A stretch of 64,000 nucleotides of DNA from Candidatus Bathyarchaeia archaeon. Lineage in GTDB: Archaea > Thermoproteota > Bathyarchaeia > Bathyarchaeales > Bathycorpusculaceae. The translations under genes and the position numbers were made by a program. Shown one piece after another: positions 44,790 through 64,000 of the stretch. The stretch's first letter is position 1, and each line of letters begins with the position of its first letter. The DNA is taken from positions 257,115 to 321,114 of the forward strand of contig JAVYWL010000002.1 in assembly GCA_038727135.1 (NCBI GenBank), in the 5' to 3' direction. The notes under the pieces were generated by a model that was given only the letters and a program-made list of their open reading frames with translations, was not told where the DNA came from and did not search any database.

Positions 44790-44790
44790 A

Positions 44791-47832: not shown

Positions 47833-47854
47833 CGCCGCCGGTCGGACTTGAACC
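47833..47854 (-). repeat. tRNA 3'-end fragment (tRNA-Asn-like), probable att of a second island
   Basis: Minus strand GGTTCAAGTCCGAC CGGCGGC G = T-loop, T-stem 3' strand, acceptor 3' strand and G discriminator; no 5' half adjacent. Confidence 0.7.
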
Positions 47855-47964
47855 CGCCACGGTGTGGAGATTTCTCCCGCAATTTCCCTTCTTTTTCTGT
47901 TTTGAGCCTTTATCTTGCTGTTTTGTCGTTTAGGGGCTAATTTTTCTCTTGGGGAAGCCTAAAG

Positions 47965-48675
47965 TTGGATGCCTTTGTTAGTCTGGATTTTTTGCGTAGT
48001 AGGCTTCCTTCTGATTTGTTGGAGGAGTTGGCCTTGTTTTTAGGTTTGTGTTTTGAGTGTGGGGGTCGTTTACGTAGAATTGATGGAGAGGTTGTTTGTG
48101 AGGGGTGTGGACGTGTTTGGGGCTATGAGAACGTTGATGAAAGTGTTCCTTTCCCCGAAGGAGGGAATGATGGGGCGGATAGCCATTTTGAGGGGCATTG
48201 GCAGCCCGGTAACAGCCTATGCTTCTTGAAAGGTCTAGGCGATCCAACACTAGAAAATAATGGACGTGAGAGGAGTTTGATGCGGGTTTTGGCTTTGGCT
48301 CCAGCCCAAGGCGAGGACCTGGGCCTAAGAGCCCGCAGAATAAAGGTTATGGTGCAGGCTGAGGACCCGCCACAGCTTAGAAGAATCCTATCCAGAATTT
48401 CACAACTCCTAGATAAGCTTGGATTTCGTGGAAACTATGAGATCGCGGCTTATACTGGGAATTTAGCTAGGAAAATTGTTGCTTTTGCCTTGGCTGCCCG
48501 GTTATCGATTCCATCCACATGGGCCGACGCTATAGTTCGGCATACCCTCAACAAGCTACAGTTGAAAATAGCATCAAGCGATAATATTTTAAAGTTTAAG
48601 GATGAGGACTTGCAGTTTGTCGAATGGTTCGATAACGCAGTCAAGAAGTTTAAGCTCAAAGAGGCTTCTAAGTAA
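47965..48675 (+). CDS. Zn-ribbon protein (TFB/TFIIB-like N-terminus)
   Basis: CFECGG...DGEVVCEGCGRV; helical C-terminus. Confidence 0.6.
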   Translation: MDAFVSLDFLRSRLPSDLLEELALFLGLCFECGGRLRRIDGEVVCEGCGRVWGYENVDESVPFPEGGNDGADSHFEGHWQPGNSLCFLKGLGDPTLENNGRERSLMRVLALAPAQGEDLGLRARRIKVMVQAEDPPQLRRILSRISQLLDKLGFRGNYEIAAYTGNLARKIVAFALAARLSIPSTWADAIVRHTLNKLQLKIASSDNILKFKDEDLQFVEWFDNAVKKFKLKEASK

Positions 48676-48687
48676 TCATTGTACATT

Positions 48688-49602
48688 TTAGGGCGTAAGC
48701 CAAGGCTCCGCTAACGTGCGATATGCTTCTCTCCAACTTTCTCGGCTTTTGCTGATGTAGACTATTTGTTGTTCTGGGACTTTGTGGCCCATCCAAAACT
48801 CTATGTAAAGCGGATCAACCTTATGATCGCTTAATATTGTGCGGAAAGCAGCCCTAAGCGAATGTGGGCTATAGGGGTTCCTTCCAACGAAACGTCCTCC
48901 AAACTTTTCGCCTATTCTTGCGAAGTAGCTGTCAACAGCCCTAGCAGAAACCGTGAATAATGGCGTGTCCTCCTGCATGGCTCTGCCTTCCAAATGCTGT
49001 TTTAGAAGCGACAAAGCCCATCCGCCAAGAAATGTTAGGAAGGGGATGTTTGTCTTCTTCCTTGAAAGGTCTAGGCATACAGGCGTAATGTGCCCTTCAA
49101 ACTCGTTTTTGATATCGCCGTATTTTAGGCCCAGCAAATCTGATATGCTTAAGCCGCTTTGAACTATGCAGGCTGCAATACAGCGATATTGAATGTTATC
49201 CATTAGCGATGTGAATCTGCCGATTTCCTCGATGGTCCATGAATGCTTTTTGTGGAGGGCTTTTGCTGGTGGTCGGCTGACATAACGCATACTTAATGGG
49301 ATGTCATAGTATTTGGCTAGGGATTGGACGGCTCCAACATAAGTGTTTATTGATTTGGGGGCAAAGCCTTCACACTGCAAATAGCCAATAAAAGCGTTTA
49401 ACGTCTTACGGGCTACCCGCGTCTTCTCCAGCCTAGGCTTATGAAGGTCTTCTTCCATCAGCCTCAAAAAACCAGCCACATCGAGGCCTTGCCCAGCCAA
49501 AAACTCCTGGAATTTGGTTAGGGCCCTAGCATATATGTGGCGGGTTCCAGGCTTGAGGGCTGAGAGGAACTCGTCGACTTCTGGCGATGATGGCGATGTC
49601 AT
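48688..49602 (-). CDS. Tyrosine recombinase with atypical box I (SGLSISD, Arg replaced by Ser)
   Basis: Core-binding domain (APKSINTY), RKKT, PHSLR, MGH, VY. Confidence 0.88.
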   Translation of the reverse strand: MTSPSSPEVDEFLSALKPGTRHIYARALTKFQEFLAGQGLDVAGFLRLMEEDLHKPRLEKTRVARKTLNAFIGYLQCEGFAPKSINTYVGAVQSLAKYYDIPLSMRYVSRPPAKALHKKHSWTIEEIGRFTSLMDNIQYRCIAACIVQSGLSISDLLGLKYGDIKNEFEGHITPVCLDLSRKKTNIPFLTFLGGWALSLLKQHLEGRAMQEDTPLFTVSARAVDSYFARIGEKFGGRFVGRNPYSPHSLRAAFRTILSDHKVDPLYIEFWMGHKVPEQQIVYISKSRESWREAYRTLAEPWLTP

Positions 49603-49698
49603 TCAAATGAAAAATTTAATGGAAGCTATCAACAACCCCTTTTATTATGGCGTTTTTCAAGGCTTTTTGAAAAATTTTATTGAGTTGGGCGTTTTGGG

Positions 49699-49726
49699 TG
49701 TTCTGTTAAGAGGTGTTAACAGAACA
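49699..49726. repeat. Recombination-site-like palindrome A (perfect 11-6-11)
   Basis: TGTTCTGTTAA GAGGTG TTAACAGAACA, 96 bp upstream of the recombinase start. Confidence 0.85.
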
Positions 49727-49904
49727 ATATTCGCATGGTTAAAGACGGGGACCAAGGCTGTTTCTTAATAGGATTCTTTATTAAACAATTAATTTTGCAC
49801 GGGCAGGGAGAGTTATGATATACATCTTAATTTATGCTTCGAGTGGGCGGGAAGGAGTTTCAAAGTTAATTAGTTAATATTTTTCCTTTGGAGGGTTTGC
49901 CTCG

Positions 49905-50384
49905 TTGCCTAGGCCTCGGAAGTATGCTGATATGATTGTCAAGTCTTTCTGTGTTGAAAGGGCAGTTTACGAAAGCCTTAGGGCTTTTTTGTCTGCGCAG
50001 GGCAGATCAATAAGCGAGGAAGTAAACGAACTCCTAAAGAAGCGCCTATTAGAGCTTAAAGGCGGGGAACAGCCTTCTAACGGAGCCCAAAATTATGAGG
50101 CCTTGAAGCGTGAGCACGTCCAACTCATGGAAGAGTCCATGCGCCTAACAAGGCTTTTACAGAAAACCGGCCAATACGACGCTTTAATAGAAACGTTGCA
50201 AGATCTAGGCCTAAACATAGAAACACTAGATAACATAGAAGAGGTTAAAGCAAAACTACTACAAACATGGAACGGCCCAAAAGCACCAGCCCACACCCTC
50301 ATAACCCTACTAGAAACAATCCAAAAAAGAAAACAAACAGAAAAACAACTCGAAGAAATAAGAACCAAAAGAAACAACTGTTAA
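49905..50384 (+). CDS. RHH-like DNA-binding protein
   Basis: KSFCVERAVYESLR...GRSISEEVNELL. Confidence 0.65.
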   Translation: MPRPRKYADMIVKSFCVERAVYESLRAFLSAQGRSISEEVNELLKKRLLELKGGEQPSNGAQNYEALKREHVQLMEESMRLTRLLQKTGQYDALIETLQDLGLNIETLDNIEEVKAKLLQTWNGPKAPAHTLITLLETIQKRKQTEKQLEEIRTKRNNC

Positions 50385-50403
50385 ACGTTACTCTAATAGA
50401 AGT
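50374..50403. repeat. Site B (degenerate; 2-nt CT duplication lengthens the spacer)
   Basis: ACAACTGTTAA ACGTTA CT CTAATAGAAGT; ACGTTA spacer shared with site F. Confidence 0.55.
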
Positions 50404-50435
50404 GGGACATTGAAAATAAAAAGGAGCATGTTGCG

Positions 50436-51152
50436 TTAAGGTCCATATCTTGCCTGCAGGCCGAGGATGTCGCCTAGTCCAAGTGTTCGCTTGTATGTTT
50501 CTCCATAGTTTGCGTAGCCATACATTGTCAGCCAATAGTCTTTGTCTTCATATAAGTCGTCGAGGCCGCACCAGTGGCCGAATTCGTGAGTCATAATGTT
50601 TTGAACATCCATCTTGTTAGTCTCACCCGTTAGGCTCCACGGAAACCACGTGTTCATTTTTGTGTCTGTCTCAAGTATATTTTCGCCTGAATACCATATG
50701 TAGGTGACTGCAATGACATTTGGATTTGCGTATAATCCCCATGCAACAACGTTGTATCCGTCTCGGACACCTGCGCTTTTACGTGTTGTGCCTTGGAAAA
50801 CGAAGAGCTCAAAAGTTGTGTTGGCATCCCATGTTTCTGCTGCTATGGTGATTGTGGCTATAACATCTGATGTTGAAAAGCCATACTTGTTCTTCGGATT
50901 TATCCAATAATTTATAGTGGTATGCCACCAGAAAGGTAATAGCTTATAATCAGGGTTTGTCATAGAATCGTCCTCAGGCGGTATTGAATACAAAATAATG
51001 CGCCCGCGTCCCCGATCATACCACTCAACAACCATTAGATGCGCTTGCTGTTCACATGCAAAAGCGTAAAGCAACATTGGCGAAAACAGCGACAAAGAAA
51101 CAATGCAAGCCAATATCATAGACCGAATCTTTCTCATATAACCTGCCCACAT
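50436..51152 (-). CDS. Secreted matrixin-like (M10) zinc metalloprotease
   Basis: Signal peptide; THEFGHWCGLDD and Met-turn TMY. Confidence 0.85.
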   Translation of the reverse strand: MWAGYMRKIRSMILACIVSLSLFSPMLLYAFACEQQAHLMVVEWYDRGRGRIILYSIPPEDDSMTNPDYKLLPFWWHTTINYWINPKNKYGFSTSDVIATITIAAETWDANTTFELFVFQGTTRKSAGVRDGYNVVAWGLYANPNVIAVTYIWYSGENILETDTKMNTWFPWSLTGETNKMDVQNIMTHEFGHWCGLDDLYEDKDYWLTMYGYANYGETYKRTLGLGDILGLQARYGP

Positions 51153-51274
51153 TAAAAGAGGCGGACGCGAATTAATAAATGTTTTTTAGCGCTATTCAAG
51201 AAATTCATACGCGTAAGTTTATACTTTAAAAGCTTAAGCTTTAGTTAAGCCTGTCTTAAGGCTTTCCCATTATT

Positions 51275-51775
51275 TTACGTGGTAAATTGTCCGCTCTTGA
51301 CTATATGGGGAATCGGATTTTCAGATGAACTGACTAGAAGGGTCTCCGAAAGCCGTAGTTGGCTTGTTCCCTCTCCTTTCACGTAGAATTCAACTGTAGC
51401 GAGGGTGCCGCTTCCACTCACGCCTGGAACATCACCGATTAAGGTGCAGTCTAAAATCAGACCGCCCACTTCAATGAATTTTTGGCTGAAAAAGGTTTGA
51501 CCATGATTCTTTAGAAAGATTCCTTCCGTAACACTGCTAAAATTTAAAACTTGCGGATTCCATTCCAGTTTAACCTGCCAGCCATATAAGTCGGCAACAT
51601 TTGAAATACTAATGTTAATCGTGATGAACTGCCCAACAGACCCTTTGACTGTTTGAGGGCTAACGTATAAAGTTGCTCCGGTTTCCGTTTTCTTAAAATA
51701 ATATAGGCATATAAATGCTACGACAAGAATGCAAATGACAGCCGCTGATATGCCAATTACCAATTTCTTATTCAT
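51275..51775 (-). CDS. Membrane-anchored cohesin-domain protein
   Basis: N-terminal TM; INISISNVADLYGWQVKLEWNP..V.EG.FL..GSGTLATVEF. Confidence 0.8.
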   Translation of the reverse strand: MNKKLVIGISAAVICILVVAFICLYYFKKTETGATLYVSPQTVKGSVGQFITINISISNVADLYGWQVKLEWNPQVLNFSSVTEGIFLKNHGQTFFSQKFIEVGGLILDCTLIGDVPGVSGSGTLATVEFYVKGEGTSQLRLSETLLVSSSENPIPHIVKSGQFTT

Positions 51776-51870
51776 CTGAACTCACCGCCAAGCTAGCTTT
51801 CTCTTCTATATCAGCTTTGATTCGCTTTACGAAATTTAGTCTTTTCTGATTTCGCGTTAAAAGCGTTAGG

Positions 51871-53188
51871 ATGACGGTTACCAAGATTAAAACCATGACG
51901 CCGCTTTGGTCTTACGAAACTACGGGCTCGGTGACTTCGGTCGACATTACTCCAGATGCCAAATACGTAGCGGTGGCAGCGAGAGACAAAATATATGTTT
52001 TCGACAGTAGCGGAAATAAGTTGTGGGAAAACTACCTCTATGATCTGTACTCCGGGCCAACTCCTGATGTTGACGTTGAAGATGCGGCCATATCACACGA
52101 TGGAAGTTATGTGGCAGCCGTGGGAGGCGACAGCCTATGCTTATACAACAAAACAGGCGATCTTCTCTGGACAGTTTTCACACCTACTTACGCTTCTTAC
52201 ACGTACCTCGTTGCAATTTCATCTGATGGCCAATACATAGCGATAACGGATAGCGACGTGGTGGTCACATTATACAATGTAGCGGGTCAAGTCTTATGGT
52301 ATAAGGAGTTAGGTACTGTTAGGTAGCTACTCAGTCCCATACGAGGGTGACAGCTTCTTATGCACAGCGATTTCCGCTAACGGCGCATATATCGCAGCTG
52401 GATGCCAAGATGGCAAAGTTTACTTCTTCAGCAGCAATAACCCGCCAACCATCACCTCTGGTAGAGTATATCCATTGGTGGGATATGAAAATGCCACTTT
52501 CACGTATGAGGCAAGCTATAAAGACATCGATAATGACCCGCCAGCCTACGTAAAAGTATACATTGACGGCGTAGGCCATAATATATGGGGCTATATGAGT
52601 GGAGTATACCAGACAGGCGCCAAATTTCAATATTAAACAAAGCTGAACCCAGGCTACCATTATTTCTACTTCGAGACGCTCGACGCACGAGGAGGATATA
52701 ACAAAACAATCGAGTTTTCCGGACCCTATGTAATACCACAAACATCAGAATACACCTTCAACATTACAGTTGATGGAACAACCTTCCTAATCAAAATTTT
52801 CAGCAACTCATACATAACAGACTTCACCTTTAACCAAGCAGCCATACAAATCAGCTTCATGATTTACGGCGAAACCGGAACACAAGGCTACTGCAACATC
52901 ACAATACCGAAGGCCTACATCAAAGGAGAGCCATGGACCGTCAAACTCAACCAAACAACAATCGACTACATTTTAACCCAAAACCAAACACACTACTCCA
53001 TATACATAAACTACACATTTACAAGCCTATACCAAGTGACGATAGAAGGAACATGGGTAATACCAGAATTCCCATCAAACATTATTATATTACCCTTCAT
53101 GTTAATCACCGCTATTACACTAATAATGCTTAAAAGAAAAAGACAAAAACCCCTAAACTCCTCCAATTTTTCTATTATCCACCGGTAA
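51871..53188 (+). pseudogene. Disrupted cell-surface beta-propeller protein with PEF-type C-terminal anchor
   Basis: WD40/PQQ-like repeats (51871-52326), further fragments in other frames, and C-terminal VIPEFPS + TM + KRKR (52859-53188). Confidence 0.7.
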
Positions 53189-53195
53189 TGGAAAC
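53168..53195. repeat. Site C
   Basis: TTTTCTATTAT CCACCG GTAATGGAAAC. Confidence 0.75.
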
Positions 53196-53277
53196 AATAG
53201 AAAAGCGCTGATAAGATTTTTGGAAGAAATATGTTAGTTTGTGTTGATGACTGGATGCTCGTAACTTTAAAATCGCG

Positions 53278-53869
53278 TTAAATTAGGGATGGGTTTACCT
53301 CGTATGTTATTCCTTCTTTTGTGGGGTTATTTATGTGTGGGTTTATTATTCCTCCGCCTTTGAACTCAACTATAAGTTTGTTCATGTTTACTTTTAGTCC
53401 ATGTTTTTCTGCGGCTTGCTTTATCGTGTGGGGCGTGATTTTTACTATTGTGTGGGGGTCTTTTTGGCTTATTATTTCTCGTTATTTCATTGAAAACTGT
53501 CAGCATTTTGTCAGCGTCTGGCTCTGCTATCTCTTCTAAGTATTTTTTGACAGCTAATTCAGGTTTCCATTCACCCGTTTCTTTTGCATGATTTATCAGG
53601 TGTCTTATTACATTTGGCATTTCATAGGTTTCGCCGGGTTTAGCGTTAAGTATTCTGTCTTGCCATGCAAGTGACAAGAGGTTCTTAGACGTTTTAACTG
53701 GTAGAAGCAATCTTTCCTTATATGCTAAAAGTAGTAGGCTTCGCTTAGTCTCTTCGTCACAGTCTACTTCTTCATAGGATATTATTCCTTTCTCTGATGC
53801 TGATGCTAACATGGCTGCTAGAAGGCTTGTTTGTTCTCCTGGAAATTTCCTCTTCAAAACTTCCCTCAA
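53278..53869 (-). pseudogene. Hypothetical protein, frameshifted near 53480
   Basis: ORF continues in another frame as ...KITPHTIKQAAEKHGL...EFKGGGIINP...YEVNPSLI stop. Confidence 0.65.
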
Positions 53870-53918
53870 TCTGTTTAGCTTTTCATCATTCTCAGCTCAA
53901 AAAATGGGGGAAATGATT

Positions 53919-54290
53919 TTAGCGTGCAACGAATGGTTTTTTAACAGGTTCCACCGCCCTTAGAGTCGCTATTTTTGGCATGTAGTGGCTTATTGTTAGT
54001 ATTGTTCCCCATGTGGCTAGTGTGACAACCGACATGGCTGAGCCTACAGTGGCCATTTCATGAAGCATTACTGGTATGTCTGCAGGGTTCGCCATTGCCG
54101 TTAAGAATGGCGGCCACGGGACAACTTCAGCATGCCAAACATGCTCCAATGCCAGTAGAATAACTCCGCCCCATAACAACGCATTGAGGATCCAAAGCTT
54201 CAACTTTTCAGCTAGGTTTCGCGCAGTCTTCTGTATTATGGACGTTATTATTGCCAGAGCCATCGGAACTAAAAAGCAAGCCACCCTCAT
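53919..54290 (-). CDS. Small 3-TM membrane protein (LLWGG...EHVWH)
   Basis: Hydrophobic segments with His residues; GGAGG upstream. Confidence 0.8.
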   Translation of the reverse strand: MRVACFLVPMALAIITSIIQKTARNLAEKLKLWILNALLWGGVILLALEHVWHAEVVPWPPFLTAMANPADIPVMLHEMATVGSAMSVVTLATWGTILTISHYMPKIATLRAVEPVKKPFVAR

Positions 54291-54297
54291 TCCTCCG

Positions 54298-54325
54298 GTA
54301 ACACTAAGCTTATATTTCGTAATAC
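54298..54325. promoter_or_regulatory. NikR-like operator 1 over the divergent promoter
   Basis: GTAACAC-N14-GTAATAC enclosing TTATAT. Confidence 0.55.
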
Positions 54326-54352
54326 CGATATAAGCCTATCGGAGGAAAAAGT

Positions 54353-54649
54353 ATGTGGCTCATTATTCTATCATTTGCAGCAGCAGTCGCCACTCCAATA
54401 TGGTATGCTAAAGCTGAGGAAGATAAGTATATGCTTAGGCTTCTCTGCCTAATACTTTGGGGGGCAACAATAATGGTGTTTGTCGACCATGTAATGGGTT
54501 TTCTAATGGAAGGCGGAGAATTCTTTGAATTAACTGCTGAAGCGACGGTTTTAGGCCTCGTCATGTTGACAGCCGCGCTTGTTGTCTGGGAGATCGCCTT
54601 ACTCCTTAAGGATCCAAAGGGCATACTATACAAAAAGAAGAGCGAGTAG
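54353..54649 (+). CDS. Small 3-TM membrane protein (ILWGA...DHV), apparent paralogue of the divergent neighbour
   Basis: Similar TM layout and LWG..[ED]H motif; GGAGG upstream. Confidence 0.8.
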   Translation: MWLIILSFAAAVATPIWYAKAEEDKYMLRLLCLILWGATIMVFVDHVMGFLMEGGEFFELTAEATVLGLVMLTAALVVWEIALLLKDPKGILYKKKSE

Positions 54650-54766
54650 ACGTTACCCCTATATTTTTATCTTCAATTCATTGAAATGTCTTCATAAAAT
54701 CTAAAAATGCTGACCAGTCATCCGTGAACTGTTACAAGTTTTATTTGTTAACTCCTGAATAAAACA

Positions 54767-54794
54767 GTGTTACGATAATATATAAAAGTAACAC
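54767..54794. promoter_or_regulatory. NikR-like operator 2 over the TATA box
   Basis: Perfect GTGTTAC-N14-GTAACAC enclosing ATATATAAAA. Confidence 0.6.
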
Positions 54795-54821
54795 CGATAT
54801 TCAATATCTAATTGTGAAAAC

Positions 54822-55151
54822 TTGTCAAGTGAGCTATCCACGGAAATTAGAAAGTTTGAGGTTAGGCTTCAAGAATTTGTAAAGGCTGAAGATGAAGCAA
54901 TCAAATCATTAACAGCCTTCATAGGAAAAGTTAAGGAATTAAACAAACTCCTAGAAGCACAATTAAAGGAGAATAAGCCAAGAAAAATCGAAAACGTCAT
55001 GTATCTCCGATTTGAAATTATCAAAGCCCTCCAAAACGCTCTAAACCGCATAGCCAAAGCCGAACATGAAAAAAGCCACCTTCCACAATCATACGGGTCA
55101 ATTCTAGCAACCATAGAAGAACTAACCAAAGCATTACTAAAAACTAAGTAG
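54822..55151 (+). CDS. Coiled-coil hypothetical protein
   Basis: Helical ORF with EHEKSH motif, downstream of a TATA box. Confidence 0.65.
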   Translation: MSSELSTEIRKFEVRLQEFVKAEDEAIKSLTAFIGKVKELNKLLEAQLKENKPRKIENVMYLRFEIIKALQNALNRIAKAEHEKSHLPQSYGSILATIEELTKALLKTK

Positions 55152-55155
55152 CTCA

Positions 55156-55183
55156 GCCTCTGTTGGTCACCGTTAATGGAACA
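55156..55183. repeat. Site D
   Basis: GCCTCTGTTGG TCACCG TTAATGGAACA, 4 bp after a stop codon. Confidence 0.75.
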
Positions 55184-55309
55184 ATAAAATTTGCATAATA
55201 AATGTGTCCGTTGGATTTTAAACGAGGTGTAGAAAGAAATCGGTAGGTTTTATTAGTTTGATGGTTCTTTTTAAATTTTAAACGGGTTTGTGCTGAGGGA
55301 TGCGGTAGA

Positions 55310-55477
55310 ATGGTGAAGAGGAGGGTTTGTTTTATGTGTGGTAAGGAGCTTTCGGAGGGTGAGGCTGTTCCCGTTTATAAGGAGGTTTTGGATCGTGAGT
55401 CTGGCGAGTTGAAGTCTGTTTTGGATTATTATTTGTGTAAATCTTGTTATGCTATTGTGAAGAAAAGAACCGTATAG
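55310..55477 (+). CDS. 55-aa zinc-finger protein, absent from ORF track
   Basis: MVKRRVCFMCGKEL...YYLCKSCYAIVKKRTV, two CxxC motifs. Confidence 0.7.
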   Translation: MVKRRVCFMCGKELSEGEAVPVYKEVLDRESGELKSVLDYYLCKSCYAIVKKRTV

Positions 55478-55490
55478 TGTGGATGTGAAG

Positions 55491-56450
55491 TTAAACCGAG
55501 TCTTTTACTTTTTCTAATGCTTCTTCCGGGTTTTTGGCTTCTATTATCCGGATTTTGTATAGGTTTGCGAGTCTTTTTCCGTTTTCGCTTATTTTTGGCA
55601 TGGCTATTAGGATGGTCTTTTCTATGTTTGAGTCGTAGGCTTTTGCGAACATGTCTATTATGGCTTGTTCTTGGACTGGTTTCTCGTCTGTTGATGTTGA
55701 TATGTTGATGGCTATTTTGTAGGGTTTTCTTCCATTGTTGTAGGCTATCATGTCGAACATGTGTCTAACTCCGGAGCGGCCTTCAACAAATCCTGGAGTT
55801 TCCACTTTGAAGCCTCTGTCTTCCAACAGTTTTCCAATAGGTGCTAAAATAGCCCAGTCCATTGCCACGATTTTGACCAACTCCTCGTTTAGGCTGTATA
55901 TGTAAGCATCTTTTAATTTGGCGTCTTCAAATGTGAATTTTGTTTGGCAGCTTCTGCAGAAGTGTCTTGGAACTGGTATGTCAAAGCTTTTCCCGCATTT
56001 GTTGCATGTGCACCAAACACCAGCCCTTCTAAAGTCGACTTCTATCTCATCTAATTTGCGCCCACATTTAGGGCAGGTAAGCCCATCCTTTTTGCGGAAT
56101 TTCTCTTCAACATCTATGTATCCGCACTTAACATGTTCGATGAGGGAGCTTCTTTCGATGTCAAAAGACCCGCAGAAAGGGCAGGAGTAGAGAATGGAAA
56201 CGTTTACGGATTCACATTTTGGACAGCAGACGATCTTATCGTAAAGCTGCCGCTTCAAAATTCCGCATTCATGAAGCTTTGATAAAAACTGTTCCGCGCT
56301 TTCCGAATCCCCGACTATTTCTTCAACCTCTGGATAAACAAGCACCTTTTTCAAGTCAAAAAGTGGGGTTAGGGCTTTAACCTTCCCGCTCATAAATTTG
56401 TTGAGGAGGGCTTGAACACGCCTGTCATTAAGCGGGTCGCTAAAATTCAT
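55491..56450 (-). CDS. TackOD1-like multi-Zn-ribbon protein with C-terminal restriction-endonuclease-like domain
   Basis: CPKC..CPFC..EHVKCG..CPKC..CNKC..CRSC series, then GRSGVRHMFD. Confidence 0.75.
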   Translation of the reverse strand: MNFSDPLNDRRVQALLNKFMSGKVKALTPLFDLKKVLVYPEVEEIVGDSESAEQFLSKLHECGILKRQLYDKIVCCPKCESVNVSILYSCPFCGSFDIERSSLIEHVKCGYIDVEEKFRKKDGLTCPKCGRKLDEIEVDFRRAGVWCTCNKCGKSFDIPVPRHFCRSCQTKFTFEDAKLKDAYIYSLNEELVKIVAMDWAILAPIGKLLEDRGFKVETPGFVEGRSGVRHMFDMIAYNNGRKPYKIAINISTSTDEKPVQEQAIIDMFAKAYDSNIEKTILIAMPKISENGKRLANLYKIRIIEAKNPEEALEKVKDSV

Positions 56451-56455
56451 TGCCG

Positions 56456-56926
56456 TTATTCCCCGCTCTGAGCAGGTTGAAACTCAAACTCGCATGCTTT
56501 ACCTTCAAAAGAGGCGCATTTCCGCTCTTTTACAGCAATATTTCTGCTAAGCAGCTCTGATAGGAAGCCGCCTAAAAAATTTGACAAAAAATAGCAGCCA
56601 ACTATACCGCCGGACCTCCTTGTCCGAGTTTCAAGGGAATTTTTAACGCAAAGCCTTCCAGCTCCCTCGTCAGCATCTATATAAGCGACAGTGAACTCAC
56701 CCCAGTTCCATCCAGTTAAAATTTGGCAAAGCCTTTCAAGCGTGTCTTCTACGCCCAGGTTTTGGCTTTTCATTTTAAGGCAAAAAAGTTTCCCGCAAGA
56801 CTTAGCCATGGCGGCAACAATAACCACGGCGCCTGAAGCAAAGAGCTGTTCAAGGGCTCCCTCCATTTCAGCCAACATCTCAAACTCTATGAAGAACCCG
56901 CCATTCTGCTCAAGAACACTCTTCAT
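56456..56926 (-). CDS. V4R-domain protein
   Basis: NWGEF, NSLE, C..LSNFLGGF, VKERKC...ACEF. Confidence 0.8.
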   Translation of the reverse strand: MKSVLEQNGGFFIEFEMLAEMEGALEQLFASGAVVIVAAMAKSCGKLFCLKMKSQNLGVEDTLERLCQILTGWNWGEFTVAYIDADEGAGRLCVKNSLETRTRRSGGIVGCYFLSNFLGGFLSELLSRNIAVKERKCASFEGKACEFEFQPAQSGE

Positions 56927-56941
56927 CTACATCACGCCTAA

Positions 56942-57241
56942 TCACTTCGGAACAGCCCAATTCCTATATTCAATGTATATGCCTATCAACGTCAATATCC
57001 CACCCAAAAGCATAAGCAATCCGCCAGCAGCATGCGCCTCAAAACCTCCAACACTCAAAAAATACTTTAGCGAGAAAATAGATGAGCCAAAAGCAAGGGA
57101 TAAAACCCCCAAACAAACAAAACGCCAAGGTCTACCCATAACACCACCCTTAAAAACACGCATCAAACGACACGCAAAATAAACAAGGCAAACATTAACA
57201 ACTAAGGCGATCACGTTCAACACAACATGAAACATCTCCAT
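56942..57241 (-). CDS. Small 3-TM membrane protein
   Basis: Three hydrophobic helices, FKGG..PWR motif; first gene of a three-gene operon. Confidence 0.75.
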   Translation of the reverse strand: MEMFHVVLNVIALVVNVCLVYFACRLMRVFKGGVMGRPWRFVCLGVLSLAFGSSIFSLKYFLSVGGFEAHAAGGLLMLLGGILTLIGIYIEYRNWAVPK

Positions 57242-57350
57242 AAACCATCACTCCTTAAACCAAACACATAGACATCAAAATCAAACACTTTAAAATTATG
57301 AAACACAAATTCAGATAAAAAATCAAAAAACAAAAAGCACCACAACAAAT

Positions 57351-57378
57351 CTTTCCTTTAGTAGTCGTTAATGGAAAT
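57351..57378. repeat. Site E
   Basis: CTTTCCTTTAG TAGTCG TTAATGGAAAT. Confidence 0.78.
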
Positions 57379-57561
57379 AGGCGTTTTCTAAAGTAGCTCT
57401 TGCGTGTGGTTAGGTCCGTTTTTACGTTGAATGAAAGTTTATCTCGTTACGATTGCAAGACTTATCATAATGGTCGTCAAGCTTAGCTGTATTTTGGATA
57501 CGTATTCACGTTTAACAATCTTTTAATTGTTAGGTTGAACCCTTCATATCGGTGTTTACTA

Positions 57562-59228
57562 TTGAAGGTCGGTATTAAATATGAAAGGTTGCAATCCCTT
57601 CTGATCGTAGCTTCTATATTATTGTCTGTTGCTAGCGTGGCGAGCACTTTAGTGGTTGGTGTGGCAGCTTACACGGGTGTTGCTAAACCAATGGAGTTTA
57701 CTTCCATTATAGTAGCACTCCTGTGCATGTGGCTGGTTTAGAAACACATTATATTTTGAACACAAGCAAAGTTTTCCAGGCCTATAACAATTCCTTCTAT
57801 AAGCCTGTAGGTCTCCCAAAAATTGTTGTTGACTTTTACCTATATCCAAATTTTGCTGGGCCTGCGGAGATCAATGGTTCCTGGCAGGTTTTTATTTGGG
57901 CAAACTCCTCTGCCTATAAACCAGCAACATTTGCGCTTCATTTTAAGGAGATAACCGTCGGTGGCGCAGTCCTTTGGGATTCGGGACTACTAAGTCCGAT
58001 GGTGACCAGCACCATTGGAAGCTACTTGGATGTTCCAGTATACTGCTATAACCTCACAGTTTCGCTTGCACATGTATTTAACACGGATTCAACTTTGCTT
58101 GTTGAAGTTGAGGTTAATGCTGGCTCCTCGGCTGATACAAGGATATGGTTTGACTCGCCACAGTTTCCGAGTAAGGCGATACTGCCCGCCAGAGACTATG
58201 CAAGACCGGCATGGATCAAAACTTATTCAGTAGATGGTTCGGAAACAAACATGTTCTACTATAATGTTAGCGAGAACGAGCGCAAAGTAATTGTCCGCGT
58301 AAACGTAACTGACCCCTTTGGAGGATGCGACGTATACAAGGTGAACATAACCATTATTGACCCTGAAGGCAACCGAGTCATAGATAATAATGACATGGTT
58401 AGGGTCTCGAATGGCTTATGGTTTATAAAATACTCCAACGTTTTCGAGTTGAACTGGACTTATCCTTCAACTGTTCCATTGGGCAACTACACAGTAATCG
58501 TAACAGTCATCGATAACAACGGATATTATCATTACGTTGAAACGGGAACTTACCAACCATTCATTGAGGAAGAAACTCACACCTTCACCATGGGCATAAT
58601 AGTCTATTACAATCCATCATTCCTAATAACTGATGATATAGGCGACCCATTACCAGAAGCACAAGTTTATGTTACGTGGCGAAACGGCACAACAGATAGG
58701 CTACCACGTTACACATCAGCTGAGGGCTATATAAACCTAACAGACGTCCAGCCAGGAAATTACGGATTCACAATACTGTGGAAGGATGTTATTGTAAGCC
58801 AAACCACCATATACGTTGACTCCGATGGACCATACACTATAAGGACAAAGGTCTATCAGCTAACAGTAAACCTTTATGGAAACGATGGCAAACCAATTCA
58901 TGGAGCCTACGTAATCGTCTATACAATGTCGGGTGTTGGATACGGTCTTGACATAACAGACGCGGCGGGCAAAGCCACCTTTAAGCTGCCATCAGGATCA
59001 TACCGAATAGAAGTCTACTACACAACTGATTACTGGCTAACAACGGTTAAATCCACAGCCACAGAACAAGCCACCATAACATCATCAACAACAAAAGGCA
59101 TAGTATTATCAAACTTCCCGCCAGCAATATGGACAACAACAGGATTCCTACTACTAATTGCAATCATCATAGCTGCCATGATAGCTGCAGCTTACACCAT
59201 AATCACCATCCATAGAAAAGCCCGTTAA
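57562..59228 (+). pseudogene. Cell-surface Ig/carboxypeptidase-regulatory-like protein; signal peptide separated by a frameshift at the T-run 57697-57699
   Basis: Adding one T joins ..VAKPMEF to YFHYSSTPVHVAGLET; C-terminal TM + RKAR. Confidence 0.75.
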
Positions 59229-59348
59229 AACAAAATCATCGGCAAATGTCATTAAACCAGCCGAGAACCAAGTTTCCTCATTTTCCACTTTATTGACTGA
59301 GCAGCACACACCACAACTTTACTGTTAGTCGCTAAGCGCAAATATAGC

Positions 59349-59376
59349 CACTCTTTTAGACGTTACTAACAGAAAA
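59349..59376. repeat. Site F (preceded by a truncated left arm plus spacer at 59318-59334)
   Basis: CACTCTTTTAG ACGTTA CTAACAGAAAA; upstream half-site TTTACTGTTAG TCGCTA. Confidence 0.75.
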
Positions 59377-59455
59377 ATGTCTTAAAACGAATAAAGTTTA
59401 TAATTTATGCGTGTGTCGTGGTGTTACTTGGGTCTGGAATTATAAAGTCTTCATT

Positions 59456-59767
59456 TTATTTTCTTTGGCTGATTTCTCTCATGAAGTCTGCAAGTTTAGC
59501 GTTTTTGGCTTCTTCGTATTTTATTCCAAGTTTGAGGCATAAGTTTTTTAGGATGGCGTTTTCAATTATTTTTGCTCCAGCGCCAAAAAGCCTGTTCAGA
59601 AATTCTGTAAAAAGTTCTGGGTTTTCTGGAATGTCTTCTTTTCTGAGGGCATAGGAGCTTTTAAGGTAATAGTAGACGACTTCCTTTCCACTTTCGCCTA
59701 AGGTGGTTTGTAGGGCTTCGTCTATCGCTTCAATAAGAACGGTGTTAAACTCTTTTTTAGATGTCAC
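59456..59767 (-). CDS. NitrOD5/DUF3227-like small protein
   Basis: EAIDEAL..LGESG..YYYL...IPENPE.F...L..LFGAGA.IIE. Confidence 0.7.
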   Translation of the reverse strand: MTSKKEFNTVLIEAIDEALQTTLGESGKEVVYYYLKSSYALRKEDIPENPELFTEFLNRLFGAGAKIIENAILKNLCLKLGIKYEEAKNAKLADFMREISQRK

Positions 59768-59780
59768 TATTTTCCCAACA

Positions 59781-61298
59781 TTAGATTATTGGTGTGAGTT
59801 TAGGCATGGCATAACCTTTTGAGGTGTCCATTTCAAGGGCGTAAAAGCATGTCCTTGGTTTAACCCCGCAGACAATTATGGTTCCATGTTCGCGTGTGAT
59901 TTTTAGGTGTATGTCTGCGATTGCGCCAAGAGTTTTGGCTAATTGGGGGTAGCCTGGCTTAAGAAGGATTATGCCCAGGCCTCCATTCTCCTTTATCCAT
60001 GTAGCATCCATTTTCAAAATGGAGATTGTTTCCTTTATTCCATACACATCTGTAAGCATGTCTACCCCTGTAATGCGCAACACTGGCTGGCCTGTTCTTT
60101 CCACCAGTTCCCGCTCTATCTCCATATACCTTTTATAGTCCTCTGAAATGTTCTCGCCCTTAAACGCTACAAGGTAGGGTTCCTGTTTGATTCCGGGATA
60201 ATCTTCTTTAATGCCTACTCTTAAGAGGCTGTTTATCTCGTCAAGTGTTAAACCTCCTTCCTCAGCCCTCTTTTTAATGAGGTTGTGGTCCACTCCTGCT
60301 GATGGAATTATAATTATGCCTCTTCCTTGAGTGGCAAAGTTCCATGCTGTTGGAACCGCGATAAGGTGATATTGCAGCGTTGAAACGTGCTCGCTAATTT
60401 CGATGAGAACAGGCGAGCCTCTTGGGTAGCCTCCACCCAGCATCTCATCCAAGCTGGGTATGCCTGATGAGAAGAACTGATCAGTGTCTGGTTGAGGCTT
60501 GAACCTGCATGGCTTATCAACAGGCTTAGCTTTGAAGGGTGGAAACGCTTTGAAACCATCCTTAAGCGTAAACACTAATCGTGTTTCTGGAAGCGGTGTC
60601 CCCCTCATCTTGAACAGTGTGATCTCTCTTAGGGGTCTACCCATTAGACTGCTTCTTCCCATGTGGATTATGCCGTCGGCAACGAATCCTTCTACGCCAA
60701 AAACTACCTTATCCTTATCGTTCATGCATGAGTTCTCGACGATGATTAATGTTGTGCAGCCTTGAAGCCTACAAACCTTACTTAAAACAGTGTGTAAAAA
60801 TACCCTTACTTCATGAGGTTCCTTGAACGCCTGAGCAAGAGCGGAGAACGGATCTACTACGAGGCGTTTCGCCCCTAACTCCGTTACCTCTCTCAAAATT
60901 AACTCAATAACCTCTGGAATGCCTCCCTCCTTAACCGTTAAAAGGTCTAAGAACCGGAACTTTCCACTATCCTCAAGCTTTCTAAAATCATATCCAAAAC
61001 TTCTCATATTCTCGTAGAAGGCGTCCTTGCTTTCAGCAAAGCTCACGTAAACGCCGTTATCATCATACTCCACACATCCACGATAAAGAAACTGAGCGGA
61101 AAAAATCGTTTTGCCAGATCCAGGACAACCAACCAGAACGATCAAGCTGTTCTTAGGAAATCCTCCCCCAAGGACAGCATCAAACCCTTCAACGCCAGTG
61201 GGAACGAGACGCTTTCTCAAATTATCATCGCTAAACACTTTTTCATTTTCATTAAACATTTTTAAATCCAACTTTGCTAAAGAATGGTTTCCAAGCAA
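59781..61298 (-). CDS. KaiC/RAD55-like ATPase with degenerate second (GvpD-like) domain
   Basis: PTGVEGFD..LGGG, GCPGSGKT, DGII, KMRGT; second SSGIPSLDEMLGGG repeat lacks Walker A. Confidence 0.85.
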   Translation of the reverse strand: MLGNHSLAKLDLKMFNENEKVFSDDNLRKRLVPTGVEGFDAVLGGGFPKNSLIVLVGCPGSGKTIFSAQFLYRGCVEYDDNGVYVSFAESKDAFYENMRSFGYDFRKLEDSGKFRFLDLLTVKEGGIPEVIELILREVTELGAKRLVVDPFSALAQAFKEPHEVRVFLHTVLSKVCRLQGCTTLIIVENSCMNDKDKVVFGVEGFVADGIIHMGRSSLMGRPLREITLFKMRGTPLPETRLVFTLKDGFKAFPPFKAKPVDKPCRFKPQPDTDQFFSSGIPSLDEMLGGGYPRGSPVLIEISEHVSTLQYHLIAVPTAWNFATQGRGIIIIPSAGVDHNLIKKRAEEGGLTLDEINSLLRVGIKEDYPGIKQEPYLVAFKGENISEDYKRYMEIERELVERTGQPVLRITGVDMLTDVYGIKETISILKMDATWIKENGGLGIILLKPGYPQLAKTLGAIADIHLKITREHGTIIVCGVKPRTCFYALEMDTSKGYAMPKLTPII

Positions 61299-61384
61299 AA
61301 TTTATAGTTTACGAATTTACAATTAACTTTACAAAAATAAAGCAAACAGCTATATCTTAACACCATCCAGTAAAATAGGGGAAA

Positions 61385-61680
61385 GTGCAGCGCGAAAAAA
61401 GGCGCCAAGAAGCATAAAAATTCTGGGAAAAGCATTCACAATAGAGATACTGGAATCTCTAAGCGAATGTCCAAAAAGATTTACAGACCTAAAGGAATCT
61501 TGCTCAAACGACAAAACAAGAGCTGAAAGAATTAAAGCCTTAAAAAGAGGCCGCTTCATCGAAGCCAAACTAATAGAAATTGAAGGACGAAGCACAGTCT
61601 ATTACACCCTCACAAACAGAGGAAAAGAGGCCTTAAACCTACTTAAACGCCTCGAAAACATGGTTTCGGAAGAACAATAG
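61385..61680 (+). pseudogene. HxlR-type winged-HTH regulator, frameshift in A6 run near the start; absent from ORF track
   Basis: IKILGKAFTIEILESLSECPKRFTDL...VYYTLTNRGKEAL; GTG at 61385 joins in frame if one A is added. Confidence 0.7.
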
Positions 61681-61711
61681 TCTAACGATAAAATTGTTTT
61701 AATTGTTTCAT

Positions 61712-61739
61712 GTTTCGGTTAGTGTCTCCTAACAGAACT
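61712..61739. repeat. Site G
   Basis: GTTTCGGTTAG TGTCTC CTAACAGAACT. Confidence 0.78.
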
Positions 61740-61765
61740 TGGGTAGTAATTTTAGTTTTACGTTT

Positions 61766-62341
61766 TTAAATTTGCTTAATTTCCTCTGTTAAGTTAAGCG
61801 CTAGTTGTGCTGCTTCTTCCAATATAGTTTCGTTTGGTGGTGCTGGGCCGAAATACCAGAAGGGTGGTCCATTTATGCTGTCTACGCTTGTATAGTTGAG
61901 TATGCTCCAGTAGGCTTGTGCAACTTTCTGTCCAATATCATGGATTGTGTTCATCATTCTTGATTGTTCCGTAGAGTTCAGCCGAGACAAATCAATGTTG
62001 GGATCCCTGATGGTGTCTATTAAGTAAAGGATTTTTCCTAATTGGACTTGATGCCCTTGGTCCAAATTAATGAGCTCCGTCAACGAACTGGTTGCATAAA
62101 CTAATTCGGCATTAAGCCAGTTTGAAGTTGTGGGATCCAAGCTTCCATTAAATTTGGCTGGCAAGAGCACATAAACGGCGTCTAGATGAGTCCTTAGGCG
62201 TTGCGACTCCCTGAGCATCGATGCCCAAAGCTTGTGCGTATTAATTTTCTGGAAGGCCCAAAAAACTCCAGCAACCACAACTATAACCAAGAGAAACAAA
62301 ATTATAAATCGTTTCAGACTTATGCAAAAAATTCTCCCCAC
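61766..62341 (-). CDS. Membrane-anchored hypothetical protein
   Basis: N-terminal TM helix; single-gene module. Confidence 0.7.
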   Translation of the reverse strand: MGRIFCISLKRFIILFLLVIVVVAGVFWAFQKINTHKLWASMLRESQRLRTHLDAVYVLLPAKFNGSLDPTTSNWLNAELVYATSSLTELINLDQGHQVQLGKILYLIDTIRDPNIDLSRLNSTEQSRMMNTIHDIGQKVAQAYWSILNYTSVDSINGPPFWYFGPAPPNETILEEAAQLALNLTEEIKQI

Positions 62342-62462
62342 TTTAGCTCCCTCTATATAGTCTACTGTTTTTCAAACCTTAAAATTTTCTCGCCGCAAGC
62401 CAAACGATAAAACTCTGACTCGCATACTTTGACATAACATCACAAATATAAAACAATGAGTG

Positions 62463-62840
62463 CTAACAATAGCTCGACATTCTACTAGTCATCGCTAAAA
62501 TAATGAAAGAGTAAAACTTCGTTGGATCAACCCTGAGCCTAATAAAACCTCTTTTTTGGTAGCACTGCCCCATCGAAACAAACTGAGCGGAGCAAATAAT
62601 GGGAAGCAATAGCATTACATTAGAAAACTTTTTTCCTATCATGACTTTGTTCCAAAAAATTAGTGTAGTATTAATTATGCTTATAAGAATTGAGATAATC
62701 AGCATAATGAATGCTACACCAACGTCGTGTCCTTCCGAACTTAGGTAAATAGCGGTCGCAGCTGAAAAGGCAACCCCAACTATTAAAAGCAGCCGAACTA
62801 AAGTCTTAGCGGAGTGATTCGCAGCAGCATTATTTTCCAT
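62463..62840 (-). pseudogene. Truncated/disrupted membrane protein
   Basis: TM helices followed by loss of a coherent frame; ends across site H. Confidence 0.45.
62478..62505. repeat. Site H (weaker)
   Basis: CATTCTACTAG TCATCG CTAAAATAATG; overlaps the apparently truncated end of ORF 62463-62840. Confidence 0.5.
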
Positions 62841-62980
62841 ACTGTTTCACCTGTCAAAAGGACCGTGCAACAATGAGGGTTGTCGTCCCATTCACAATCT
62901 CATCGTATCCAAGAGACGGGTCAATTGAACCAATAATGACTCTATCACTTGAGATATCATCACTCTCAAGAGACACTTAT

Positions 62981-63241
62981 TCATAGTAAACCCTCCGCCG
63001 GATCATCAGCCTTTCCATATCTCAAAATTATGAGATTGCATTTTCTACATCGATAGGCTATGACGTTATATATGTGAGGCCCAAGGCCCTTACCAACAAT
63101 TAGTTCTCCGCTGAAAAGCCCTTTAAGTGACCAATTACTAATTTTTTTATTACTCCAAGCCATTCCCGAAGCAAAAGCCAGGTATCCGCAATCCAATTTA
63201 GAACCGCACAGTGGGCAAACCTCTATAGCTTTTTGCTCCAT
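62981..63241 (-). CDS. DUF6487-like small Zn-ribbon protein
   Basis: CPLCG...GYL...W...AYRCRKCNLII. Confidence 0.7.
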   Translation of the reverse strand: MEQKAIEVCPLCGSKLDCGYLAFASGMAWSNKKISNWSLKGLFSGELIVGKGLGPHIYNVIAYRCRKCNLIILRYGKADDPAEGLL

Positions 63242-63421
63242 CTTTTCAGCCTTCAATTTATTCCCTTCCCTTATTTTTTCTCCGCTCTTGATAATTAAAC
63301 TTAGCCTTTTTCTATCGTTGTCGATCAAGCATACCCTTCGTTGAGATTTTGCAGCCCACAAGCACTCAATCTACCGTAAAATATAAAATCTACATTAAAA
63401 CAACAACATCAAAACATCATG

Positions 63422-63449
63422 GCGTTCATTAGTCGCTGTTAATGGAATA
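63422..63449. repeat. Site I
   Basis: GCGTTCATTAG TCGCTG TTAATGGAATA. Confidence 0.78.
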
Positions 63450-63474
63450 GTTCGGATATTAATTGCTTTTTGTG

Positions 63475-63933
63475 TTAGGTTCTTAATGCGTGTGTTATGT
63501 CGCTTCTTGTTAGAATTCCAAGCAGTGTTTCCTTGTTTTCCTTGCTGACGACCAGTAGTCTTCCAATGTTGTGTTTGTTCATTTTTTCGAAGGCTTCCGC
63601 TACTGATTCTTCTGGAAAAGTTGTGACTAATTTTTTTGTGCAGATTTCTCCAAGGGATGTTTCGTTTCTTTTTTCTTTTGGAACTTTCATTACGTCTTGC
63701 AAGGTAACTATTCCCAAGAGTTTGCCGGACTCGCTTACTATTGGAAAGCCTATGTGATGATGCTCTGCCACTTTGTCAAAGAATTCATTTATTGTCATTG
63801 TAGGCGTTAGCGTGATGACGTTTTTTGTCATAATTTGTTCTACTTTCATTTCCTTCAGTATGCTGATTTCGATTGGTGTTGGCTTTATGTAAAACTCCGC
63901 AGCTGTAGGTATTATTATGCCCTCTTTTTCCAT
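63475..63933 (-). CDS. CBS-pair protein (possibly the C-terminus of a larger gene beyond the window)
   Basis: VEQIMTK..GFPIV..LLGIVT.QD and IGRLLVV..LLGILTRSD. Confidence 0.8.
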   Translation of the reverse strand: MEKEGIIIPTAAEFYIKPTPIEISILKEMKVEQIMTKNVITLTPTMTINEFFDKVAEHHHIGFPIVSESGKLLGIVTLQDVMKVPKEKRNETSLGEICTKKLVTTFPEESVAEAFEKMNKHNIGRLLVVSKENKETLLGILTRSDITHALRT

Positions 63934-64000
63934 GTTTCTGCTTTCTTGCAGTGCGCTTTTTCTTTTTTGAGTTGATACATTAATTAGGTGTGCTAGTGTG

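Follow-up and report, generated by a model that had tools for sequence, protein, structure and literature searches.

Short palindromic sites with ordered spacer classes punctuate islands of Bathyarchaeia and are probable core sites of a Xer-like tyrosine recombinase

Several arrangements are known in which recombination sites punctuate accessory genes. Integron attC sites are long imperfect inverted repeats that are recombined as folded single strands, and integron cassettes, which are mostly promoterless and co-oriented, enter at attI beside the integrase. Shufflons carry inverted sites and flip segments inside a single gene, and tycheposon and IMEX arrays have copies of a single att or dif site as their punctuation. 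Engineered lox and FRT variants recombine only with their like, and unlike flanking sites allow a swap without deletion. In Acinetobacter, neighbouring pdif sites alternate in orientation, forming C and D modules. Here we describe an array of short sites in a 64-kb stretch of a Candidatus Bathyarchaeia archaeon genome (assembly GCA_038727135.1, contig JAVYWL010000002.1, positions 257,115 to 321,114), which is referred to below as the window. The array lies beside the gene for a Xer-like tyrosine recombinase of 304 amino acids (aa), REC304 (48688–49602, minus strand). We consider it likely that the sites are the core recombination sites of a simple tyrosine recombinase and that they split the cargo of Bathyarchaeia islands or integrative elements into exchangeable modules; the enzyme that acts on them is most likely the REC304 family protein itself. 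A first-pass annotation, made from the letters of the window alone, had described an integron-like cassette array of nine sites behind a tyrosine recombinase. Its observation is confirmed and its interpretation is partly supported, but it missed the spacer classes, the fixed order and the common orientation of the sites, a structure unlike an integron.

The sites are 24 bp long with a 9-6-9 geometry, in which inverted arms (TTCYRTTAR and YTAAYRGAA) surround an asymmetric 6-bp spacer. This is the core-site anatomy of a tyrosine recombinase, as had been proposed, although the arms had been put at 11 bp; across 166 distinct classified sites, conservation ends after 9 bp in each arm, and arms of 11 bp are seen in site A only. 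Site A (TGTTCTGTTAAGAGGTGTTAACAGAACA, 49699–49726) is indeed the perfect 28-bp, 11-6-11 palindrome reported 96 bp upstream of the recombinase open reading frame (ORF). It carries the spacer GAGGTG between the divergent genes for REC304 and a 159-aa protein, occurs as a single copy in the window where shuffled sequence is expected to hold none, and is the only exact match in the window to the strict consensus TTCYRTTAR-N6-YTAAYRGAA. At up to three mismatches, the window holds 10 matches, all of them within 49701–63424, against a mean of 1.17 and a maximum of 5 in 100 shuffles. Eight of the nine sites listed earlier are recovered at this threshold, namely site A and those at 53170, 55158, 57353, 59351, 61714, 62480 and 63424; the ninth (50374 in that listing, 50376 here) is a half-site, site B. 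The two extra matches, at 53115 and 56542, are probably due to chance. The statement that positions 1–49 kb contain no complete copy also holds at up to three mismatches.

Reading rightward from site A, site B (50376–50399, plus strand) is a half-site of spacer class F, with two mismatches in the left arm, an exact ACGTTA spacer and five mismatches in the right arm. It is followed by a D-like site with weak arms and the spacer TCACCG (53097–53120, plus), by site C, which is also D-like with the spacer CCACCG (53170–53193, plus), and by site D of class D (TCACCG; 55158–55181, plus). Site E (57353–57376) has a spacer, TAGTCG, that matches no class found elsewhere. Site F (class F, ACGTTA; 59351–59374, plus) is a direct repeat of site B, 9 kb away, and beyond it lie site G (class G, TGTCTC; 61714–61737, plus), site H (class H, TCATCG; 62480–62503, plus, with three arm mismatches) and site I (class I, TCGCTG; 63424–63447, plus). 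The order in the window, A, F (half), D-like, D, E (unique), F, G, H, I, is that of two units joined at the second F site, and the array is incomplete because the window ends at a contig end. A genome-wide half-site scan, requiring an exact class spacer and one good arm, gave 100 matches against 79–94 in shuffled sequence, which is noise, and was used solely to describe site B and the site at 53097.

The array is not confined to the window, which is the final 64 kb of contig C2 in a genome (G000) of 1.55 Mb and seven contigs. Genome-wide, 18 matches are found at up to two mismatches, none of them in the 820-kb contig C1, and the other clusters lie at C3:6566–26269, C4:155143, C7:408 and C2:195819/196909. 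A match at three mismatches is present at C1:1123, and on contig C6, 282 bp from the contig end, a class-I spacer is found with a single good arm. The 24-bp core of site A is identical at C4:155143, and a one-mismatch copy is found at both ends of contig C1 of a related genome, G005. At up to two mismatches, G005 holds 30 matches against 4 with a reversed-pattern control, and G002 holds 41 against 4. Among 61 related genomes, 21 have the motif at up to one mismatch, and of the 13 that belong to the same genus 12 have it, with controls giving 0–1. The motif is real, strongly clustered, above both shuffles and reversed-pattern controls in these consensus scans, and associated with assembly breaks. 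The class-I site pattern had no match in IMG/VR. Three small contigs of the genome, C5, C6 and C7 (5–6 kb each), resemble alternative array cassettes: C7 begins with an H site at 408, and its proteins are 93–100% identical to those after the H site that starts G005:C1, while C6 links a cassette like one in genome G021 to a cassette encoding a CBS protein.

The same arms and a small set of spacers recur across Bathyarchaeia genomes and across genera. The spacer classes are F (ACGTTA), G (TGTCTC), D (TCACCG), H (TCATCG), I (TCGCTG) and T (TTGCAG), and the sites of an array have a common orientation and succeed one another as A-F-G-(D)-H-I-T. Classes and order were defined on the first loci and then tested on two further sets, in which 44 of 48 transitions are ascending, the loci having been picked for holding a site or the recombinase and the related genomes not being independent. 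In the first test set, the loci of four other genomes, 30 of 34 sites carry an exact class spacer, where a random 6-mer would fall in a class 0.34% of the time, and the transitions are 15 ascending and 1 descending. The second test set comprised 39 loci obtained by scanning 185,579 species genomes with the class-I pattern as the only seed. Here, an exact class spacer is present in 66 of 74 sites (39 of these being class I by seeding), and 29 transitions are ascending, 1 is descending and 2 are of mixed orientation. Nearly all of the 39 class-I-seeded stretches are in metagenome-assembled genomes (MAGs) labelled Bathyarchaeia or Bathyarchaeota. The order is sometimes repeated in tandem, and the I and F sites are then 44–52 bp apart. 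At one locus of the second set (L081, 2391–7209), the array reads G+, H−, I+, T+; this H site is the sole inverted site among the 74 and hints at inversion of one site or slot.

All of the sites lie at gene or operon boundaries, as had been noted, and the last codons of an ORF are overlapped by site B and by the sites at 53170 and 62480. Sites A and E lie between divergent gene starts, sites G, H and I between tandem genes, and sites B, C, D and F between convergent gene ends. The divergent placements raise the question of whether the sites are transcription-factor operators, bound by the 159-aa protein or by REC304 as a mere DNA binder, in which case the array would be an island regulon with no recombination. 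It fits this explanation that A-type sites always precede the 159-aa gene, with an unconserved spacer as expected of a pure binding site, and that REC304 is without the canonical first catalytic Arg (Arg I). However, no promoter is expected between the convergent 3' ends at B, C, D and F, and operators need no discrete spacer classes and no fixed order and orientation across genera beside unrelated flanking genes. Breakpoints and contig joints that fall at the sites, to the spacer edge, are likewise at odds with it, and the ribbon-helix-helix (RHH) fold that had been given to the 159-aa protein is unconfirmed. We therefore regard operators as an unlikely explanation of the array as a whole. 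Site A had been proposed as an attI-like entry point. Since the proximal spacer varies (GAGGTG/GAAGTG, TAAAAG, CACATA, TTCACG and others) and was found at no cassette boundary in the loci examined, site A is better explained as a binding site for the recombinase, or as an operator, within the divergent promoter region than as an entry point.

The content of the slots between sites is hypervariable; as compared by tblastx, 27 H-to-I slots hold 19 unrelated content groups. The view of the sites as module boundaries, which the first-pass annotation had put forward, is borne out in that modules differ between genomes exactly at the sites. After 88 endpoints in loci lacking any recognised site had been set aside, the fetched loci with at least one site gave 192 internal homology endpoints. 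Chance would put 1.53 of these within 15 bp of a site centre; 52 are found there. The coincidence of breakpoints with sites is thus far above expectation, but it is partial, with 140 of the 192 endpoints lying away from recognised sites. Individual comparisons place the junctions more finely. The window matches G007:C1 at 98.6% identity over 61713–64000, beginning at site G, and the shared stretch includes G to I. The recombinase module (47840–50390) is repeated on C4 at 84% identity and ends at site B, where the junction at base level is the right edge of the spacer, and the recombinase region common to G005 ends inside site A. On C6, the same CBS cassette has a different left neighbour, joined at the class-I spacer. 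The KaiC/NitrOD5 gene pair of the window is also present in the F-to-G slot of genome G013.

Two further comparisons concern relatedness across genera. The proteins of the F-to-G slot genes in G005 (L038, G005:C1:1–20000) and in G021 (L055/L056, G021:C1:898000–937999), which belong to two genera, are 75–100% identical, and the CBS block after site I is 94–100% identical in G000, G007 and G021. These identities suggest recent transfer between genera.

One may ask whether such boundaries are simply inherited, with the modules being reshuffled by ordinary homologous or illegitimate recombination. The order could then reflect descent, and both the 140 endpoints elsewhere and the decay of many window sites would be readily accommodated. 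Palindromic 24-bp sites that stay perfect in many genomes, with asymmetric class spacers and unrelated flanks, imply selection or regeneration, however, and passive boundaries account poorly for junctions at spacer edges or for a recombinase gene that is linked to the sites. On the basis of these data, we consider inherited boundaries a very improbable explanation, and the reading of the sites as recombination sites is carried forward.

Assembled hot-spring metagenomes offer a second view of the same boundaries. Fifteen runs hold 10–47% of the sampled words of the last 10 kb of the window, none of them half or more, and the contigs of four runs (X1–X4) were compared with positions 46001–64000, the window parts with no metagenome cover being left out as evidence. 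Starts or ends of these contigs fall at sites B, C, D, F, G, H and I (50393, 53173, 55165, 59356–61735, 61764–62483 and 62552–63422). Record 24 of X4 ends at 53173, in site C, record 27 covers 59356–61735, from site F to site G, and record 28 ends at 62483, in site H; record 10 of X2 ends at 55165, in site D. X1 contigs diverge after 61737, and an X3 contig enters the CBS cassette from a different class-I site. Contigs also rejoin at the sites. In X3, a contig runs directly from 50369 to 59356, linking the two ACGTTA sites, B and F, and lacks the cargo between them (unit 1, described below). In X4, a contig with a depth of 29.9 runs from 59317 back to 55166, placing the surface-protein cassette before a D-class site and the TackOD1 cassette; this join may reflect a circle, a tandem copy or a different order. 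The array reading would explain the MAG contig breaks at these loci. Separately from the sites, X1, X2 and X4 contigs carry 326–327 extra letters at 52311–52316, at the end of the beta-propeller ORF, and X2 carries 485 extra letters at 54749–54758; these may be deletions in the window or insertions elsewhere.

The candidate enzyme, REC304, matches Pfam Phage_integrase (1.8e-10), and its best match in the PDB is Pyrococcus abyssi XerA (4a8e, E 6e-10). Against the NCBIfam model XerA_Arch it scores 53 bits, with a cut-off of 220. The integron-integrase models TIGR02249 and NF011946 do not match it at E ≤ 0.01, and this result and the 24-bp sites agree with the earlier view that the locus is not a classical integron. 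In an alignment with XerA and 20 family members, K183, H247, R250, H273 and Y282 are invariant, as is R181, two residues before the catalytic Lys. REC304 is found in 17 of the 61 relatives at E ≤ 1e-10, where it is patchy and often multi-copy, a pseudogene or cut by a contig end. A large protein collection holds 270 homologues at E ≤ 1e-5; among the matches listed, those with names are called only "integrase" or "site-specific integrase". Known plasmids and phages gave distant matches only, at ≤28% identity.

Linkage between the REC304 family and the sites was followed in 80 metagenome loci encoding REC304 relatives, and the family adjoins such sites in independent contigs, in line with the first-pass pairing of recombinase and sites. 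The close clade (77–93% identity) includes 22 loci that extend 150 bp or more upstream of the REC304 match, and in 21 of them a consensus site is located 123–202 bp upstream of that match. The spacers of these upstream sites are, within one mismatch, GAGGTG in 16 loci, TAAAAG in 4 and CACATA in 1. An F site then lies approximately 675–720 bp further out in seven close-clade loci and 4.1 kb further out in one, and in one locus G and H follow. In the clade with 57–69% identity (51 loci), a class-I site is present at the 3' end of the recombinase gene in 10 loci and another site is present there in 4, and all 31 classified downstream sites share one orientation, in the order I, H, G, F. For the homologues at 41–60% identity, which were compared in small loci for co-variation with other palindromes, no clear sites adjoin the gene.

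Several observations weigh against this assignment and against the reading of the sites as recombination sites more generally. The position of Arg I is occupied by Ser152 in 20 of 20 REC304 members, within the motif GLSISDL, and REC304 could be a poor or unusual catalyst, or a DNA-binding protein only. IntDOT is presumably a similar Ser-for-Arg case, which a literature search did not confirm. Genome G021 (98% complete, two contigs) contains 15 sites at up to one mismatch in full arrays and has no REC304 homologue; 11 more genomes, several of them incomplete, have sites but no REC304 match, and four (G008, G024, G029 and G049) have REC304 homologues without consensus sites. The linkage is therefore strong guilt by association, weakened by G021. 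With respect to exchange, a cassette common to C6 and G021 is identical through the left arm and then continues with the I spacer in C6 and the G spacer in G021. A cassette with 98% amino-acid identity is found both in an I..I slot and in an F..H slot. Because these cassettes change slot or spacer, exchange between different classes, or another process, must also occur. The 140 homology endpoints outside recognised sites belong here as well. Most of the window sites are degenerate, with 1–3 mismatches and 7 in site B, and therefore this copy may be inactive. The B–F joint has a depth of 2.5, and an F–G joint in X1, with 24 letters on one side, was left out as evidence. The metagenome evidence consists of assembled contigs showing alternative joins, not reads or a recombination reaction, and no recombination product was directly observed. 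Finally, because the loci were selected and the genomes are not independent, the statistics overstate the case.

The arrays of G021 also raise the question of whether a different recombinase serves the sites. They could be dif-like and served by the housekeeping chromosomal XerA, as pdif sites are by host XerC/XerD, with REC304 being irrelevant. The inverted arms and 6-bp spacer resemble dif, arrays exist without REC304, and the closest solved relative of REC304 is a XerA. However, no XerA reached the model cut-off among the four of the genome's 14 recombinases that were scored (best 102 bits versus 220), and the 325-aa candidate on C1 has no close orthologue, its best match among 60 relatives being 50% identical; it is part of a multi-copy integrase family that 48 of 61 relatives possess, with or without sites. 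Moreover, recombinases of about 300 aa are absent from G021, the genome-wide matches include no obvious single chromosomal dif-like copy, and the tight linkage of the REC304 family to the sites would go unexplained. Service by XerA is thus, in our judgment, quite unlikely.

The tRNA-targeting integrases of the islands (approximately 400–450 aa) are another set of candidates, as they flank arrays in G021, G013, G007 and on C1 and C3 of G000, beside primase-helicase genes. They are present, however, in 48 of the 61 relatives, including many-copy genomes that have no sites (G015, G023, G030 and G035), and they adjoin tRNA genes, which are their usual targets. A similarity search among the fetched loci also found none within the 17 kb fetched around the G021:C2 array. 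There is accordingly little reason to credit these integrases with the sites, and REC304 remains the favoured candidate.

How such an array might be exchanged can be outlined for a recombinase acting at these sites. Tyrosine recombinases cleave at both spacer ends, as stated in a 2021 review of archaeal tyrosine recombinases. Strand exchange would then occur at both spacer edges and only between sites with the same spacer, and the spacer classes would be mutually non-recombining in a homology-dependent reaction. One crossover between two arrays at one class would swap everything distal to it, and two crossovers at different classes would swap a single slot, in effect a natural cassette exchange. 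Same-class direct repeats, such as sites B and F, would allow a multi-cassette circle to excise and reinsert. Each of these events would preserve the class order. The data are consistent with same-spacer behaviour of the pdif type, in that the classes are conserved, the order is kept and the B–F joint connects two sites with the ACGTTA spacer. The sites, with their classes, order and orientation, the hypervariable slots, the breakpoints at the sites and the physical linkage to the REC304 family are observed; recombination itself, its catalysis by REC304, its restriction to like spacers, these exchange pathways and the capture of cassettes are inferred. Taken to its fullest form, the proposal is that one element-encoded recombinase with Ser for Arg I acts on six or more mutually incompatible spacers in a fixed order, providing addressable slots that can be exchanged across genera without scrambling or deletion. 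We put this forward tentatively, as a possibility that falls somewhat short of an even chance.

The genes that surround the sites are summarized as follows. Cargo unit 1 (50400–59350), between the class-F sites, encodes by Pfam an M10 peptidase, a cohesin protein, a beta-propeller, small ORFs, a TackOD1/V4R protein and a 501-aa surface protein of the CarboxypepD_reg type. Cargo unit 2 (59375–64000) consists of the slots F–G, G–H, H–I and after I, which hold, respectively, NitrOD5, KaiC and an 81-aa ORF; a 191-aa ORF; a 125-aa ORF and a DUF6487 protein; and the CBS protein, which is cut by the contig end. With respect to defence content, PADLOC matched 0 of the 10 window proteins tested. In G021, the arrays, which lack REC304, border on mobile-element backbone genes in two cases: one array (L056, 13372–18835) adjoins a homologue of the 159-aa protein, a D5_N/DUF5906 primase-helicase of 888 aa and a 425-aa integrase, another (L058, 8805–14876) adjoins an AEP primase and a 435-aa integrase, and a further one adjoins glycolytic genes.

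The core module around REC304 contains two other conserved genes. A 236-aa ORF (47965–48675, plus strand) is convergent with the recombinase gene and shows a weak TFIIB-type zinc-ribbon match only (Pfam Zn_Ribbon_TF, E 1.7e-4, below the cut-off), with no NCBIfam or PADLOC match. Its C4 copy is 82% identical, and it lies directly behind the recombinase in 14 of the 80 metagenome loci, all of the close clade. The 159-aa gene (49905–50384, plus strand) occupies the constant A-to-F slot. Its homologues follow an A-type site on C4 of G000, in G005 and in G021, and they are present in 23 of the 80 metagenome loci. The protein has no Pfam or NCBIfam match, and its AlphaFold2 (AF2) model (predicted local distance difference test score, pLDDT, 77) is helical and found nothing with E below 1 when compared with the PDB by Foldseek. 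The RHH label is accordingly not upheld by either family or fold. Between the recombinase start and site A, an inverted-repeat scan found a second palindrome, GTTTTTCAA-GGCTTT-TTGAAAAAT (49652–49675), which is 23 bp from site A, is kept in the C4 copy and in G005, and probably serves as a promoter or operator. Upstream of a REC304 homologue in G029 with 41% identity there is a comparable TTTTTCAAC...GTTGACAAA repeat.

To the left of the recombinase module lies a separate integrated element (39053–47704). It is located at a tRNA-His gene (39053–39128), the 3' 50 bp of which are repeated directly at 47621–47670, within the 5' end of a 313-aa integrase gene (46763–47704). The element also encodes a 194-aa integrase-like ORF (42645–43229), a DUF5591 protein (44791–45429) and an HNH ORF (46314–46688), and a second copy of tRNA-His is located at C2:56687–56762. 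The left end of the recombinase module is marked by a sequence resembling a tRNA T-arm and acceptor 3' end (47833–47920, minus strand), which is common to C4:153296 onward and to C1:815336–815390. Neither ARAGORN nor Rfam called a tRNA here; the sequence may be an old attachment site.

If the proposal is correct, the array would do in nature what multi-lox cassette exchange does in the laboratory, and modular gene flow in archaea would have a new mode. It would also be the first archaeal counterpart of dif-module or integron-like cassettes with simple double-stranded core sites, and it would account for the swapping of signalling, surface and other accessory genes by hot-spring Bathyarchaeia. 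A fixed order of incompatible spacers is a design principle of engineered recombinase systems that we did not find described in nature in the literature searched, and a presumably thermostable recombinase with an orthogonal set of sites would be a candidate tool for thermophile genetics. The same literature (supplements aside) yielded no account of arrays of this kind in any archaea, Bathyarchaeia included. By term search, "cassette" is absent from the 2021 review, and "Bathyarchaeia" and "XerA" are absent from the main text of the archaeal integron paper (Ghaly et al. 2022, PMC9668308).

Comparison with the systems introduced at the outset places the array more precisely. Like R64-type shufflons (Rci/sfx), it combines one tyrosine recombinase with many short sites that segment a region, but here the sites are direct and separate whole genes, the inverted site of L081 being the one departure. 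Like tRNA-targeting tandem islands (tycheposons and IMEX arrays at dif), it belongs to variable cargo islands beside tRNA genes and integrases, but its sites belong to different classes, follow an order and bear no relation to the tRNA. With integrons it has in common a tyrosine recombinase gene beside a variable cassette array and a site in the divergent promoter region. It differs from them in its short sites, which take the place of long folded attC sites, in the lack of an integron-integrase model match, in genes that lie in both orientations, and in site classes that follow a fixed order. There is also no sign of cassette entry at the proximal site, and the A-to-F slot is constant. Engineered heterospecific lox and FRT sites used for cassette exchange likewise have shared arms and differing spacers; these are laboratory designs, whereas the array described here is natural, has six or more classes and would obey a same-spacer rule.

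The closest described relative, judged from site anatomy and arrangement, appears to be the dif-module system of Acinetobacter Rep_3 plasmids, and the comparison with pdif modules drawn in the first-pass annotation was apt. In both, a backbone and accessory modules are placed between short sites whose 6-bp spacers differ from site to site. In the Bathyarchaeia arrays, however, the symmetric 9-bp arms imply a single recombinase and leave orientation to rest on the spacer alone. The array sites are all direct rather than alternating between C/D and D/C, and different genera have the same spacer classes in the same order. The recombinase linked to the sites is encoded by the element rather than being a housekeeping Xer protein, the hosts are archaea, and the arrays are located in chromosomal islands.

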